A stretch of 64,000 nt of DNA from assembly GCF_006345805.1 (NCBI RefSeq), contig NC_042998.1:198896001-198960000 (forward strand), read 5' to 3'. Positions within the stretch are counted from its first letter, which is position 1. The number at the start of each line of letters is the position of its first letter. Under the pieces are notes generated by a model. It worked only from the letters and a program-made list of their open reading frames with translations, did no database searches and had not been told where the DNA came from. A program made the translations under genes and the position numbers. This DNA comes from Octopus sinensis. Lineage: Eukaryota. This document shows, piece after piece, positions 4,925-51,195 of the stretch.

Positions 4925-5707
4925 TTATTCCCTTACCACCCACAAGGGGCTAAACACAGAGGAGGCAAACAAGGACAGACAAACGGATTAAGTCGATTAT
5001 ATCGACCCCAGTGAGTAACTGGTACTTAATTTATCGACCTCGAAAGGATGAAAGGCAAAGTCGACTTCGGCGGAATTTGAACTCAGAACGTAACGGCAGA
5101 CGAAATACCTATTTCTTTACTACCCACAAGGGGCTAAACACATAGAGGACAAACAAGGAAATACAAACGGATTAAGTCGATTATATTGACCCCAGTGCGT
5201 AACTGGTACTTATTTTATCGACCCCGAAAGGATGAAAGGCAAAGTCGATCTCGGCGGAATTTGAACTCAGAACGTAAAGGCAGACGAAATATCTATTTCT
5301 TTACTACCCACAAGGGGCTAAACACATAGAGAACAAACAAGGACAGACAAACGGATTAAATCGATTATATCGACCCCAGTGAGTAACTGGTACTTAATTT
5401 ATCGACCTCGAAAGGATGAAAGGCAAAGTCGACCTCGGCGGAATTTGAACTCAGAACGTAACGGCAGACGAAATATCTATTTCTTTACTACCCACAAGGG
5501 GCTAAACACAGAGGGGGCAAACAAGGACAGACAAACGGATTAAGTCGATTACATCGACCTCAGTACGTAACTGGTACGTATTTAATCGACCCCGAAAGGA
5601 TGAAAGGTAAAGTCGACCTCGGCGGAATTTGAACACAGAACGTAACAGCAGATGAAATATCGCTAAGCACTTCGCCCGGCGTGCTAACGTTTCTGCCAGC
5701 TCGCCGC
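4925..5707 (-). mobile_element. Family B SINE array: one head plus 4 tandem bodies of about 185 bp
   Basis: Units start near 4925, 5110, 5296 and 5478. The single head (ggcgagctggcagaaacgttagc on the minus strand) is at about 5660-5707. Confidence 0.9.
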
Positions 5708-5821
5708 TGGTAGTACCTATCATCTCTCAGAAACTGAATATTGAAAGTAGAAGCCTGAAATTATGCACTACAAATTATTTGTTTCGTCATTTATTATTTT
5801 TTTTCACAACTTTTCACAACT

Positions 5822-13319: not shown

Positions 13320-14427
13320 GGTAAATCGACATGATTGTTACTTAGTCCCCATGACAGCTCTTGTTGAGTTGACCTATGATTAAAAGCAAGCTTATCGTGA
13401 CCATTTCATCTTTTATTAATGTACTCGGAACCTAGAACCATGTTTACAAACGAACACTTTTCCTAAGACAGTAGGGTATGACTTGATAAAAAAAATCTCG
13501 CTCCTATTTCTAGCAATTCTAGGAACCGCATTGAAGCTCATTCGATGACAGATGGATGTAGATTTGGCGAGTTGTTTGGAACTACGCATCGCATTCATGA
13601 CTTCTTTGGTAACTTGGACGAATGACACTTGCCATCGTTCCGGATGCACCCAAGTGAATTTAGGTACACGGAAACTATTACGAAAACTGTTCGATGGACC
13701 GGAGCTGTAATTCAAAGGACCAGACGTGTTATACTCTATTTCGCTATTGCTGTCTGCGAATTATTTTAAGAATAAACGAGTCTGTATTTGTTTTTCAAGT
13801 TATAGATACCAATATATATGTATACATACATTTACATATACATTTATATATATATATTATATATATATATATATAATATATATATATATATAATATTTGT
13901 TGTGCAAGATTTTTTATGTGAAGTCGTGTGTTGAAACAGATATTGTTATATTTCGGAATGGTCATATTGCCAGTTTAGCCAATAAAAACACACGCACTAT
14001 ATATTTGGTGTTATTTTGCTTCAGTGATATTTATTTTTTACATTAATCTTAATCTTATTTCGGCCAAAGTTCTTTCGTCACACTCCTGTGACCGCATCAG
14101 TGGTCCTTTGTTTTCTTCTCACTTACTTGTGTCTCTCCTTACTAACCGTCAGCCATTTTGTATTTCTATTGTATGTCTTCATTTGCGCATGCTTATATCT
14201 CTATGTGCGTCTATGTTTATTTAGTGTGTGTGTGAGGGGGATGCCTGTAATATTTGTATCTTCTGGTTATATACATTCTTGTAATTTGTATTTTGTTTTT
14301 GTTGTTGTTGCGTTTGTTCTAATTTTGTTCATGTGTTTACATCCACCCATTATTATCATTACATATGCTTGTATGTATGTATAACAACAATATTAGTAAT
14401 AATAATAATAAATCTAATTGAAAAAAA

Positions 14428-15942: not shown

Positions 15943-16262
15943 TTTTCAATTAGATTTATTATTATATTATTACTAATATTGTTGTTATACATACATACAA
16001 GCATATGTAATGATAATAATGGGTGGATGTAAACACATGAACAAAATTAGAACAAAAGCAACAACAACAAAAACAAAATACAAATTACAAGAATGTATAT
16101 AACCAGAAGATACAAATATTACCGGCATCCCCCTCACACACACACTAAATAAACATAGACGCACATAGAGATATAAGCATGCGCAAATGAAGACATACAA
16201 TAGAAATACAAAATGGCTGACGGTTAGTAAGGAGAGACACAAGTAAGTGAGAAGAAAACAAA

Positions 16263-16307
16263 GGACCACTGATGCGGTCACAGGAGTGTGACGAAAGAAC
16301 TTTGGCC
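16263..16307 (+). ncRNA. Minimal type I hammerhead-like motif (A9C variant) in the PLE pseudo-LTR; mirror copy at 14062-14106 (minus)
   Basis: CCA CUGAUGC G GUCACA-ggag-UGUGAC GAAA GAAC UU UGG. Sense to the PLE ORF, as expected for PLE hammerheads. Confidence 0.6.
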
Positions 16308-16421
16308 GAAATAAGATTAAGATTAATGTAAAAAATAAATATCACTGAAGCAAAATAACACCAAATATATAGTGCGTGTGTTTTTATTGGCTAAACTGGC
16401 AATATGACCATTCCGAAATAT

Positions 16422-16463
<42 letters not shown>

Positions 16464-16499: not shown

Positions 16500-16997
16500 A
16501 AGTGTACGTACGCCGCTACATGTATATAAAAGAAGAATACAAAAAATGGGACAAGAACGCAAAACATCCAGACAGTTAGGTGATACAAAAAAGGGACAAC
16601 AACATATTCAGACAGATGATACAACAAAGGGACAAAAGCAACAAGGACGAGTCATCCGAAGTTTTCTTTCGTCAGTCGAAATCCAGATTATCTTTGCAAT
16701 TTCGGCTGGTTATACTCGAGATTGCTCCAATCTAGCCAGCACCAAAGAAAATCTAAGCTAAGAGCATTAGATTCCTTGGAAGAAAGCAGCGAATGTATAC
16801 GAAAAGAAGGACGGGAAAAAACGGAGAAATGGTACACAAATGCAAATACAAATAACAGGACATTAACAACAATTGTCTTTCAACTAAGGACGAATTAAAT
16901 TAAGCTGTCGTGTGTGGAAGTGAAACCTTAGGGCAGGGACATAAGAGAGGCCAGGCACGAGGAGGAATATAGATGTTGCACGGATGGTAGTCGAATC
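16500..16997 (-). mobile_element. Unclassified microsatellite-flanked element E1 carrying the permuted hammerhead-like fold
   Basis: Homologous to 17165-17610 (shared ctaatgctcttag, cattcgct and gtaccat blocks). No ORF. Confidence 0.55.
16643..16740 (-). ncRNA. Candidate permuted (A-C-B order) hammerhead ribozyme E1
   Basis: GCAAUC|UCGAG...CC GAAA UUGC AAA GA UAAUCUGG AU UUCGA CUGACGA. Confidence 0.55.
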
Positions 16998-17101
16998 AAG
17001 CATGGCCGCAGTCTAATGACTGAAAGAAGTAAAAGATAAAATACACACACACACATACACACACACACACATACACACACACACACAACACACACACACA
17101 C

Positions 17102-17160
<59 letters not shown>

Positions 17161-17164
17161 CATG

Positions 17165-17610
17165 TATATATAAATATAAAAATGGAACAAAACGCAATAG
17201 AGAGTATTAAAACGTTCAGACAGATAGACGATACAAAAGCGGACAAGAGAAAATAGCAATTAGAAGGATAGGCAAAGAAGACTGATCATTCGTGGCCTTC
17301 TTTCTTCAGTCAAGTACCAGAAATCACGACTATTTCGGGCAGTTACACTTGAAATGGTTCGATCTGGTTGTCCCCCAAAAAGTCTAAACTAAGAGCATTA
17401 GTCCCCTTTTTAAGAAAGCTAGCGAATGAGTACGGCAACAAAGACAAAAAAGAAAAACAAACAAAAAAGCGGAGAACATGGTACAAAATTACGAATGCAA
17501 ACAACAAGAAATAACGAATCAAATTGAGCTGGCATGAATGGAGTGAAAGCCTAAAGGCAGGAATATAGGAAACGGACGCAAGAGATGTTGACAGTCGGCA
17601 GTCAACAAGT
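17165..17610 (-). mobile_element. Unclassified element E2, a diverged relative of E1
   Basis: Collinear blocks with 16500-16997. Flanked by (TA)n and (TAGA)n. Confidence 0.55.
17275..17376 (-). ncRNA. Candidate permuted hammerhead ribozyme E2
   Basis: ACCAUU|UCAAGUG...CCC GAAA UAGU CGU GA UUUCUGG UACUUGA CUGAAGA. Confidence 0.55.
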
Positions 17611-22158: not shown

Positions 22159-22193
22159 GTTTCCGAAGAAGAGCTCCGCTCGAAACGTTAAAC
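22159..22193 (+). ncRNA. Minimal type I hammerhead-like motif (U4C) in a small (TA)n-embedded element at 22084-22292
   Basis: GUUU CCGAAGA A GAGC ucc GCUC GAAA CG UU AAAC, with palindromic stem III as in PLE dimeric hammerheads. Confidence 0.55.
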
Positions 22194-22292
22194 CCTCCTT
22201 CTTTCCTTCTTTCCTGGGCGTCCAATAATACTATATTTGTTCCACGTCCTCGCGTTGTTGTGTTTTTTTTGTGCTTTCTTGTTTGGATTAAC

Positions 22293-22925: not shown

Positions 22926-23018
22926 GAGGGAATGTTTCATCCGAAGTCGCGTCTCGCCTTCACCTTCGAAACGCGGAGTAGATGAAACCATGGCGACTGA
23001 AGAAGGGGAATTTTCCTT
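22926..23018 (+). ncRNA. Candidate permuted hammerhead ribozyme E3 within the (TA)n-embedded element at 22755-23265
   Basis: CGCGUC|UCGCC UUCACCUUC GAAA CGCG...GGCGA CUGAAGA. Confidence 0.6.
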
Positions 23019-36846: not shown

Positions 36847-37440
36847 TATTTCTTTACTACCCACAAGGGGCTAAACACAGAGAGGACAAACAAGGACAGA
36901 CAAACGGATTAAGTCGATTACATCGACCCCAGTGCGTAACTGGTACTTAATTTATCGACCCCGAAACGATGAAAGGCAAAGTCGACCTCGGCGGAATTTG
37001 AACCCAGAACGTAACGGCAGACGAAATACGTATTTCTTTATTACCCACAAGGGGCTAAACACAGAGAGGACAAACAAGGACAGATAAACGGATTAAGTCG
37101 ATTACATCGACCCCAGTGCGTAACTGGTACTTAATTTATCGACCCTGAAAGGATGAAAGGCAACGTCGACCTCGGCGGAATTTGAACCCGGAACGTAACG
37201 GCAGACGAAATACGTATTTCTTTATTACCCACAAGGGGCTAAACACAGAGGGGACAAACAAGGACAGACATAGGTATTAAGTCGATTACATCGACCCCAG
37301 TGCGTAACTGGTACTTAATTTATCGACCCCGAAAGGATGAAAGGTAAAGTCGACCTCGGTGGAATTTGAACTCACAACGTAAGGGCAGACGAAATACGGC
37401 TACGCATTTCGCCAGCTCGCCGCCTTCTGCCAGCTCGCCT
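36847..37440 (-). mobile_element. Family B SINE array (3 bodies plus a rearranged head)
   Basis: Junctions gaaatacgtatttc near 37023 and 37208. Confidence 0.9.
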
Positions 37441-37996
37441 AGCACAAGGAACGTTTAAAACAGATTCTTTTGCATTAATAGTGGTTGAACCAAAAAGATC
37501 TCGAAAACCTAAAAGGTCTCGCTTGTTCTGTACCAGGTTTTTAAACAACGCCATTTGTGAAGAATATACCGGATTTCATGCAGTTTCAGAATTTCCCGCT
37601 AATTCATTTCTGTAGTGCAAGTTGTCACTGCTAAATTATGCTGGTGTTGCTGTCTAGTTATGTGTCACTCAGTACCATAACAGTCACGCAGGTTTGAGCA
37701 TGAAATGTGACCGATATTCAACCGAATCTTCATGCCATTGTCTATTTGCAGTCTCTGTCCCACTGCCATGTCAACCTACCCAACCTTGAAACGATTGACT
37801 GCGTAAAAATGTAATGGGTGTCGAAAACCTTTTTCGCCATACTGCAACATCATCTCCACCTGTCCATGGTCCACTGCGAATAAGAAGTAAAAGATAGGTA
37901 GGCAGGAGCCAAAAAGCTTTCCTCATATACTTTGGACCTATCAGCATACATCATGCTTATATTATCCGTTGAAAGTAGGTTTCCATTTATTTTGGA

Positions 37997-46921: not shown

Positions 46922-48087
46922 CCTATTTCTTTACTACCCACAAGGGGCTAAACACAGAGGGGACAAACAAGGACAGACAGGCGGATTGAGTCGATTATTT
47001 CGACCCCAGTGCGTAACTGGTACTTTATTTAATCGACCCCGAAAGGATGAAAGGCAAAGTCGATCTCGGTGGAATTTGAACTCAGAAAGTAACGGCAGAT
47101 GAAATACCTATTTCTTTACTACCCGCAGGGGGCTAAACACAGAGGAGACAAACAAGGACAGACAGACGGATTAAGTCGATTACATCGACCCCAGTGCGTA
47201 ACTGGTACTTAATTTATCGACCTCGAAAGGATGAAAGGCAAAGTCGACCTCGGCGGAATTTGAACTCAGAACGTAGCGGCAGACGAAATACCTATTTCTT
47301 TACTACCCGCAAGGGGCTAAACACAGAGGAGACAAACAAGGACAGACAGACGGGTTAAGTCGATTAGATCGACCCCAGTGCGTAACTGGTACTTAATTTA
47401 TCGACCCCCCAAAGGATGAAAGGCAAAGTCGACCTCGGCGGAATTTGAACTCAGAACGTAGCGGCAGACGAAATACCTATTTCTTTACTACCCGCAAGGG
47501 GCTAAACACAGAGGAGACAAACAAGGACAGACAGACGGGTTAAGTCGATTAGATCGACCCCAGTGCGTAACTGGTACTTAATTTATCGACCCCCCAAAGG
47601 ATGAAAGGCAAAGTCGACCTCGGCGGAATTTGAACTCAGAACGTACCGGCAGACGAAATACCTATTTCTTTACTACCCACAAAGGGGCTAAACACAGAGG
47701 AGACAAACAAGGACAGACAAACGGATTAAGTCGATTACATCGACCCCAGTGCGTAACTGGTACTTAATTTATCGACCCCCCCCCCCAAAGGGTGAAAGGC
47801 AAAGTCGACCTCGGCGGAATTTGAACTCAGAACGTAGCGGCAGACGAAATACCTATTTCTTTACTACCCGCAAGGGGCTAAACACAGAGGAGACAAACAA
47901 GGGCATACAGACGGGTTAAGTCGATTATATCGACCCCAGTGCGTAACTGGTACTTAATTTATCGACCCCCGAAACGATGAAAGGCAAAGTCGATCTCGGT
48001 GGAATTTAAACTCAGAACGTAACGGCAGACGAAATACGGCTACGCATTTCGCCCGGCGTGCTAACGTGTCTGCCAGCTCACCGCCTT
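46922..48087 (-). mobile_element. Family B SINE array (head plus 6 bodies, period about 185 bp)
   Basis: Units near 46922, 47108, 47292, 47477, 47662 and 47853. Confidence 0.92.
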
Positions 48088-49322: not shown

Positions 49323-50732
49323 TATTTCTTTATTACCCACAAGGGGCTAAACACAGAGGGGACAAACAAGGACAGACAAAGGGATTAAGTCGATTACATC
49401 GACCCCAGTGCGTAACTGGTACTTAATTTATCGACCCCGAAAGGATGAAAGGCAAGTCGACCTCAGAACATAACGACAGACGAAATACCTATTCTTTACT
49501 AGCCGCAAGGAGCTAAACACAGAGAGGACAAACAAGGACAGACAGACGGGTTAAGTCGATTATATCGACTCCAGTGCGTAACTGGTACTTGATTTATCGA
49601 CCCCCGAAAGGATGAAAGGCAAAGTCGACCTCAGAACATAACGACAGACGAAATACCTATTTCTTTACTAGCCGCAAGGAGCTAAACACAGAGAGGACAA
49701 ACAAGGACAGACAGACGGGTTAAGTCGATTATATCGACTCCAGTGCGTAACTGGTACTTGATTTATCGACCCCCGAAAGGATGAAAGGCAAAGTCGACCT
49801 CAGAACATAACGACAGACGAAATACCTATTTCTTTACTAGCCGCAAGGAGCTAAACACAGAGAGGACAAACAAGGACAGACAGACGGGTTAAGTCGATTA
49901 TATCGACTCCAGTGCGTAACTGGTACTTGATTTATCGACCCCCGAAAGGATGAAAGGCAAAGTCGACCTCAGAACATAACGACAGACGAAATACCTATTT
50001 CTTTACTAGCCGCAAGGAGCTAAACACAGAGAGGACAAACAAGGACAGACAGACGGGTTAAGTCGATTATATCGACTCCAGTGCGTAACTGGTACTTAAT
50101 TTATCGACCCCGAAAGGTGAAAGGCAAAGTCGACCTCAGAACATAACGACAGACGAAATACCTATTTCTTACTAGCCGCAAGGAGCTAAACACAGAGAGG
50201 ACAAACAAGGACAGACAGACGGGTTAAGTCGATTATATCGACTCCAGTGCGTAACTGGTACTTGATTTATCGACCCCCCAAAGGATGAAAGGCAAAGTCG
50301 ACATCAGAACATAACGACAGACGAAATACCTATTTCTTTACTAGCCGCAAGGAGCTAAACACAGAGAGGACAAACAAGGACAGACAGACGGGTTAAGTCG
50401 ATTAGATCGACCCCAGTGCGTAACTGGTACTTAATTTATCGACCCCGAAAGGATGAAAGGCAAAGTCGACCTCAGAACATAACGACAGACGAAATACCTA
50501 TTTCTTTACTAGCCGCAAGGAGCTAAACACAGAGGAGACAAACAAGGGCAGACGGACGGGTTAAGTCGATTATATCGACCCCAGTGCGAAACTGGTACTT
50601 AATTTATCGACCCCCGAAACGATGAAAGGCAAAGTCGATCTCGGTGGAATTTAAACTCAGAACGTAACGGCAGACGAAATACGGCTACGCATTTCGCCCG
50701 GCGTGCTAACGTGTCTGCCAGCTCACCGCCTT
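49323..50732 (-). mobile_element. Family B SINE array (head plus 8 bodies, 7 lacking the B-box, period about 168 bp)
   Basis: gtcgacctc|agaac deletion junction in the 7 distal units. Confidence 0.92.
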
Positions 50733-51195
50733 CATTTATACTAATACCTACAAACTATGAGGGCTCAATTCGCACTCCACAGACAGCAGCTTATTTGATA
50801 ATTTCACAGCTAATAATTGATCCCGAAGCATTATTTCTTCCCCAAATCGAACGACTTTGTTATACGAAATGCAAGCCCACGGTAAGAGAGAAGTAGCTGG
50901 GAGTGACAGGACAAAGGGGGAAAGTAAGAAAGTGAGAGAAGGGATCATTTTCCTGATGAGAAACAGAAACTCCAAAAGTTAAGTATACTTTATCCATCTT
51001 AACTATTTTTGATAGCCAAAAGCCAGACTAGGCAATAGTCAATAAAGAAGCGTCAATTTTCTTTTAACAACAGCCTTTGATAATTAAGAGTTAGTAACTA
51101 GTTACTTTATTCCGACACATAAGGATGTAAGACTTTATTTTGTGTGTTAGCTTACAACAGTTTGATGCATAAAATGCATGTTGACATATGCATAA

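Follow-up and report, generated by a model that had tools for sequence, protein, structure and literature searches.

K-turns, k-turns in ribozymes and non-circular permutations of the hammerhead are each known separately. Standard simple k-turns such as Kt-7, U4 and box C/D join a C helix to an NC helix through a 3-nt bulge and the tandem pairs G1b·A1n and A2b·G2n, with purine-rich L1/L2 and C:G as the commonest -1b:-1n pair (PMC8191799, PMC4316175, accessible parts), and U at 2n is tolerated in natural Kt-23 k-turns (PMC4316175). RNase P (k-turn / pk-turn), a large housekeeping ribozyme that needs a sharply bent helix, has a k-turn in some lineages and an unrelated flexible element in others, the two being exchangeable (PMC3672288, accessible part). 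Type-SGC and type-CSG hammerheads (Eckert et al., 2023, PMC10085705) have a short link between stems I and II and an 'interaction' helix joining the other strands of these stems, and their block C is unbroken and was assumed to be unbreakable; in the accessible text of that paper, none is reported from the genomes of known organisms, the CSG type coming so far from metagenomes only. Naiad Penelope-like elements (Craig et al., 2021, PMC8557442) target (TA)n and form partial tandem copies. According to the accessible parts of that paper, Naiads lack canonical hammerheads and Naiad_Ovul carries an 'HHR_half_core' mark, and neither a fold nor a k-turn is described in these parts.

Here, we describe three motifs, E1, E2 and E3, in a window of 64,000 nucleotides, which is the whole stretch of Octopus sinensis DNA that was analysed (Table 1). 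As in type-SGC hammerheads, the blocks follow in the order S, G, C, stems I and II are joined by a short link, and a further helix, here called the outer helix, joins the other strands of these stems and appears to correspond to the stem I-II 'interaction' helix of the SGC and CSG types. Unlike in those types, as the accessible text describes them (PMC10085705), block C is split: the stem II 5' strand comes first, some 65 nt upstream, both in E1-E3 and in those groups introduced below that parsed well, CUGAnGA comes last, and the chain ends fall inside the core, between A9 and G10.1. A second difference is that both strands connect the interaction helix to stem III, via a k-turn. Compared with standard k-turns, those described here lie in stem III of a hammerhead, take eight different forms at 3b:3n among the k-turn groups and are predicted from sequence. 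Whereas RNase P alternates between a k-turn and a flexible element, here the k-turn gives way to a loop-E-like loop or to a plain bulge, and that these may be exchanged for one another is read from a tree. From the Naiads, E1-E3 differ in being non-coding derivatives without an ORF, with a habit closer to that of non-LTR retrozymes (bioRxiv 10.64898/2026.07.22.740005, accessible text).

Table 1. Positions of the E1, E2 and E3 motifs and their parts in the window.
Feature	Position	Strand	Details
Non-coding repeat copy holding E1	16530..17010	-	approximate extent; microsatellites either side
E1 split-core S-G-C hammerhead motif	16669..16741	-	stem II 5' strand 16741-16736; CUGACGA 16675-16669
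E1 predicted cut	between 16720 and 16719	-	
E1 arm	16683..16735	-	stem III (C helix, 5 bp) and outer/NC helix (CUAGAUU/AAUCUGG)
E1 k-turn, non-bulged strand	16726..16728	-	G(3n) G(2n) A(1n)
E1 k-turn, bulged strand	16690..16695	-	AAA (L1-L3), G1b, A2b, U3b
Non-coding repeat copy holding E2	17140..17600	-	approximate extent; microsatellites either side
E2, ribozyme layout of E1, different family	17303..17373	-	stem II 5' strand 17373-17369; CUGAAGA 17309-17303
E2 predicted cut	between 17353 and 17352	-	
E2 k-turn, non-bulged strand	17359..17362	-	U(4n) C(3n) G(2n) A(1n)
E2 k-turn, bulged strand	17322..17328	-	CGU bulge, GA, UU (family majority CU)
E3, layout as E1/E2, loop-E-like internal loop replacing the k-turn	22926..23003	+	
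E3 loop-E-like loop	22943-45 and 22977-80	+	GAA opposite AGUA
E3 predicted cut	after 22953	+	

The repeat copies that hold E1 and E2 are non-coding and measure 450-480 bases each; the two families are about 67% alike across 218 bases, and E3 belongs to a third. A first look at the 2.72-Gb genome (G000) gave 2209, 1996 and 3630 candidates for E1, E2 and E3, 40 of each being scored, and the layout was read from alignments of 30 copies per family. It runs through the stem II 5' strand, the outer helix 5' strand, the hinge, stem III, the UH cut site and the stem I 5' strand; then follow 4-6 nt, the stem II 3' strand, GAAA, stem III, the hinge, the outer helix 3' strand, the stem I 3' strand and CUGAnGA. 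In the k-turn families, the 5' hinge strand has GA and the 3' hinge strand is a 3-nt bulge followed by GA. Both the stem I 5' strand and the stem II 3' strand lie in the loop of the E1 arm. The hammerhead marks CUGAnGA, GAAA, UH and stems I-III with compensated changes are all present, and the E2 family shows a G-C/A-U swap within stem II. Three scrambled-core patterns, holding no hinge letters and run genome-wide, gave 8910, 960 and 3890 matches, against 3, 162 and 142 for the respective reversed controls. The window copies themselves are decayed relative to their families: E1 has U at 10.1; in E2, stem III contains a C·A mismatch and stem II an A·C mismatch, and positions 17 and 3b are U. 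The 52 matches of an Rfam scan of the window were all driven by microsatellites, and neither a hammerhead nor a k-turn family was among them. We also considered, by eye and by folding, a fourth helix between A9 and G10.1 and dropped it as inconsistent among E1-E3.

The original prediction placed a 3-nt bulge followed by tandem GA/GA pairs in the extended stem III of both E1 and E2, and direct reading together with a script confirmed its letters and coordinates, with the G·A/A·G pairs 5 bp from the hammerhead core. On the minus strand, E1 reads CUAGAUU (16735-16729), G (16728), GA (16727-16726) and GCAAU (16725-16721), facing AUUGC (16700-16696), AAA (16695-16693), GA (16692-16691), U (16690) and AAUCUGG (16689-16683). 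The corresponding strands of E2 are ACCAGA (17368-17363), UC, GA (17360-17359) and ACCAU (17358-17354), facing AUAGU (17333-17329), CGU (17328-17326), GA (17325-17324), UU and UCUGGU (17321-17316). The linker from the outer helix to stem I is as short as had been proposed, 2 nt in E1 and 1 nt in E2, and a second link, which the original prediction does not mention, joins the outer helix to the stem II 5' strand with 0 nt in both. A SECIS or box C/D snoRNA reading of E1 and E2 was rejected, the boxes being absent and the NC helix pointing away from the loop. Box C/D snoRNAs carry RUGAUGA and CUGA boxes, and in SECIS elements the NC helix leads to the apical loop.

In isolation, the E1 arm folds exactly into the bulged hairpin (-13.9 kcal/mol, z -2.76). 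The isolated E2 arm reaches a z of -1.18, and there UC/GA pairing competes; longer E1 and E2 segments adopt other folds or are unstructured when folded without pseudoknots. Published rules hold that the -1b:-1n and 3b:3n pairs govern ion-induced folding of k-turns (PMC8191799, accessible part). By these rules, the E1 k-turn, with C:G at -1b:-1n and U:G at 3b:3n, should fold well in Mg2+ without protein, and folding in the E2 family should be mixed, as U:A at -1 is weak and C at 3b is good, the latter having been lost from the window copy. A tight 50° kink held by hydrogen bonds across the strands is accordingly a prediction of the rules, expected to form well in the E1 arm and with mixed success in that of E2.

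Conservation of the GA dinucleotides among copies had been put forward as a check of the k-turn. Within families this check was uninformative because the copies are 94% identical everywhere: GA/GA is kept in 27-30 of 30 copies, as against 94% identity at all columns. We therefore clustered 319 candidate cores, from 240 loci and the window, into 131 groups and judged conservation across groups, keeping 42 at a parse score of at least 28 with the hinge ignored in the selection. Between diverged families, the k-turn consensus is kept in the correct register. All four k-turn letters occur in 16 of the 42 groups; 2000 shuffles of the arms gave 0.82 groups on average and never more than 6. As these 16 groups are kin (cl64 and cl0 are one family) and many consist of a single worn copy, p-values overstate their independence. 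Pairwise identity among the 16 is 34-91% (median 50%). In the register of a 3-nt bulge, their NC helices pair in 67 of 80 cells and their C helices in 59 of 67, versus 20-40 and 13-29, respectively, when the strands are slid. The C helix has 5 bp in 13 groups and 6 bp in three, 11 different triplets serve as the bulge, purines occupy 25 of the 32 L1/L2 positions, and C:G is the commonest pair at -1b:-1n (7 of 16 groups). The remaining 26 groups comprise 8 that are loop-E-like, among them that of E3 and the worn copy cl16, 8 with three of the four letters and 10 others, mostly single worn copies.

Among the matches listed on contig C1, 90 copies were sampled with a pattern lying 3' of the hinge, namely the first 30 and then 60 out of the following 70. 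GA stands at 1b/2b in 74 of 78 parsed copies and A at 1n in 45 of 46; the non-bulged strand of these 46 reads GGA in 32, CUA in 6, GAA in 4, AGA in 3 and otherwise in 1, the one subfamily with U at 2n (6/46) being a variant of the Kt-23 kind. The k-turn consensus in families of the E1 and E2 type is not due to chance.

The original prediction further held that the kink could let the permuted hammerhead close. The outer helix is tied to stem III on both strands, which would demand a sharp turn, and Eckert et al. raise a matching problem of the distance between stem III and the interaction helix (PMC10085705, accessible text). Our triangle calculation allowed 2.8 Å for each step and four steps for the core (assumed), set stem III coaxial with stem II as in hammerheads (PMC10085705) and used the 50° included angle of k-turns (PMC8191799). 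From stem II's far end to that of the outer helix, the gap came to 67 Å with a straight arm and to 30-32 Å with the kink. On this rough model, a straight arm would be excluded for a single molecule because the links have only 0-2 nt to cross 67 Å. The steric claim thus holds in part: the straight arm fails and the kink halves the gap, but the kink alone may not close the 0-nt link, for which about 30 Å axis to axis is left, so that 1-2 pairs must probably still fray or the helices pack differently, and a k-turn is not required.

Our preferred reading, to which we give a probability of roughly 0.68, regards E1 and E2 as worn examples of a retroelement motif whose k-turn likely folds the outer helix back, so that the knotted, rearranged hammerhead closes within one RNA. 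The arm hairpin would form first; the sequences flanking the arm would then return to its loop and pair there, making stems II and I. Bent by the k-turn, which in E1 would probably need no more than Mg2+, the outer helix could come to lie alongside the core, and the core would close across the A9/G10.1 nick. Self-cleavage would then give the RNA its 5' end, and the copying would be done by a Naiad-type Penelope-like reverse transcriptase.

The k-turn is not universal, as had been pointed out from the differing loop of E3, which we found as described, with GAA opposite AGUA. Its outer closing pairs are present, and the inner side has a mismatch or asymmetric loop; this internal loop agrees in sequence with the loop E / bulged-G consensus. 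E3 was also considered as a reversed k-turn and rejected, as the would-be bulge pairs with compensated changes (AUC/GAU versus GUC/GAC, by eye). Loop-E-type families account for 2561 pattern matches. In a tree of the 42 groups, a k-turn sub-clade is nested inside loop-E groups. When hinge letters were excluded, a tree of 25 of the 42 groups placed the E3 family among k-turn groups, with support of 95/94 and 96/98, and monophyly of the k-turn groups was rejected (AU p 0.0015), the groups having been named after the first tree and the rows being single copies of about 300 bases under a midpoint root. Because one k-turn clade is rejected, the hinge was probably swapped more than once.

Published Naiads from other animals include about five split-order cases with a bulge of 2-3, 5 or 7 nt or an extra hairpin at the hinge, and GA/GA was not found at the hinge of these five or so (PMC8557442 supplement, accessible part, by eye). 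In nematode Naiads, the hammerhead is unbroken and in CSG order, and its interaction helix is long (same supplement, near parts 14-15, by eye). The k-turn therefore appears to be one solution for the hinge and no requirement, because loop-E families show an equal footprint at the cut site and the Naiads of other animals use plain bulges or extra hairpins. The hinge would be a replaceable module, for which a loop-E-like loop beside a small asymmetric loop, or a plain bulge, substitutes elsewhere.

The footprint consists in copy starts that pile up 3' of the predicted cut in both hinge classes, an indirect sign that fits cleavage in vivo. In the k-turn families, among the matches listed, 29 of 90 copy starts fall at +1..+30 after the predicted cut and 7 at -30..-1 (p 1.6e-4). 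Judged by eye, four of those seven have their start at +1, next to TA repeats; internal deletions account for three rows of the sample, one of them before the cut and two behind it. In the loop-E families, the corresponding numbers are 22 of 70 (3 of the 22 being inversion or deletion joints) and 4, of which three lie within 5 bases of the cut. Against taking the pile-up as a sign of cleavage counts that 5' truncation of retroelements increases toward the 3' end anyway. No RNA holder of the motif was listed. Raw RNA reads (three runs from one study, unstranded, 85% likeness, family-wide mapping) show depth for each mate but do not end at the site, and are uninformative on strand, level and cleavage. 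Copies at L242, L109, L183, L255, L298, L300 and L323 have internal deletions, with varied end points, by which part of the 5' half of the ribozyme motif is lost.

Rather than a hinge in the first place, the k-turn could be mainly a protein site, along the lines of the original prediction: a member of the L7Ae family, 15.5K/Snu13 or some other, would turn cleavage on or shield the RNA. This reading is compatible with a hinge role, and we regard it as unlikely. Ten of the 16 k-turn groups have U at L3 (p 0.004, kinship uncorrected), fitting a protein pocket such as the one that holds the L3 uridine in U4/15.5K, and four have U:U at 3b:3n, which is box C/D-like. Most k-turns bind L7Ae, and two groups have G-C at 3b:3n, for which the rules predict poor folding with ions (PMC8191799, accessible part). 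Yet E1 and its most abundant relatives have A, G or C at L3, 74 of 78 bulges being GAG, AAA, UAA, GAA, UAC or UAG among the matches listed. E1 and its commonest relatives also have G at 3n, with which folding is predicted to occur without protein, the loop-E families have spread without the site, and tertiary contacts alone can fold a k-turn (PMC3651934, accessible part). Regulation of E1 or E2 cleavage by an L7Ae-family protein would be speculative. Equally doubtful to us is a bolder extension, a cage-like hammerhead opened in its core and closed by the k-turn, with the hinge repeatedly exchanged for a sharply bending loop-E element that would be a new kinking motif, and with cleavage of the U:U and G-C families, hence their retrotransposition, dependent on a host L7Ae-family protein.

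A strand-swapped dimer is less probable still. Two tandem units would lend each other their stem II 5' strands and stem I-CUGAnGA tails; straight arms would suffice, and the k-turn would be optional or serve another purpose. The loop-E families show the cut footprint with longer arms, for which the triangle calculation gives a gap of 78 Å if straight, and the loop-E motif is near-straight. Head-to-tail 776-nt units, as at locus L273, would put several ribozymes on one transcript, an antiparallel dimer should have no reach problem at any arm length, and cleavage as dimers has been published for Penelope-associated hammerheads (cited in PMC10085705, accessible text). The dimer gives no account, however, of the k-turn's constant distance of 5-6 bp to the core, seen in all 16 consensus groups, or of its occurrence in two separate parts of the tree, and the small asymmetric loop beside the loop-E motif could itself bend. 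Very improbable is a motif that is no working ribozyme, with GA/GA as a chance look-alike or a relic without structural role: decay is evident in the window copies, longer segments lack any notable folding energy and the RNA reads, uninformative as they are, show no ends at the site, but GA/GA is fixed while stems I-III as well as the outer helix vary in compensated fashion, and copy starts accumulate at the predicted cut.

Relatives of the E1 type form 776-base non-coding head-to-tail units inserted in (TA)n. At L273 (G000:C1:20739000-20748900), L241/L242 and L269/L270, units of about 776-830 bases carry one ribozyme motif each, and units of the L273 type appear to be retrozyme-like non-autonomous elements. 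Insertion bias for (TA)n and partial tandem copies, both Naiad traits, are present, and cluster 5, a k-turn group, matches by eye the 3' end of the published Naiad_Obim/Naiad_Ovul consensus. An ORF with N-terminal GIY-YIG and RT was found in none of the E1-E3 units, and neither a parent ORF beside copies of the E1-E3 type nor a direct tie of these to Naiads was found. At L133:1896-2267 on the minus strand, a decayed reverse-transcriptase-like frame ends about 250 bases upstream of a cluster-5-like ribozyme (by eye); a Pfam search of this frame gave no match. A frequent repeat at L121-L124, L131, L136 and L147 fits the scrambled-core pattern, yet does not parse into three stems.

A literature search covering few subscription journals found no natural hammerhead with a k-turn, no split-core hammerhead closed by one, and no crystal-structure paper on permuted hammerheads. 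The word 'kink' occurs 0 times in the searchable text and supplement of PMC10085705, whose figures may show SGC internal loops, and 'kink' and 'pseudoknot' are absent from the accessible text on non-LTR retrozymes (bioRxiv 10.64898/2026.07.22.740005). The motif would be a natural hammerhead built around a k-turn, and its hinge would give a concrete answer to the steric question in non-circularly permuted hammerheads, namely how stem III reaches the stem I-II helix. It would also supply the ribozyme thought to be missing from Naiad elements. Thousands of retroelement copies in this genome are predicted to carry a self-cutting RNA motif of knotted order, and many families keep a k-turn at the fold-back point. 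The natural swaps between k-turn, loop-E and bulge in one scaffold offer a ready series for measuring what the hinge needs, and the motif is a possible scaffold for protein-controlled ribozyme switches.

Three further observations concern the surroundings of the motifs in the window. At 22160-22195 on the plus strand, 700 bases before E3, a minimal type I hammerhead-like motif with the core CCGAAGA (not CUGA), a short stem II and GAAACG sits in a Penelope-like end. Positions 13940-14404 and 15965-16429 form a 465-base inverted repeat of 100% identity with a nested 297-base pair of 99% around it, which is either a young fold-back insertion or an assembly artefact. Both strands carry an abundant SINE-like repeat, tandemly arrayed at 184-185 and 169 bases, at positions 4926-5777, 36847-37514, 46925-47969 and 49496-50789.
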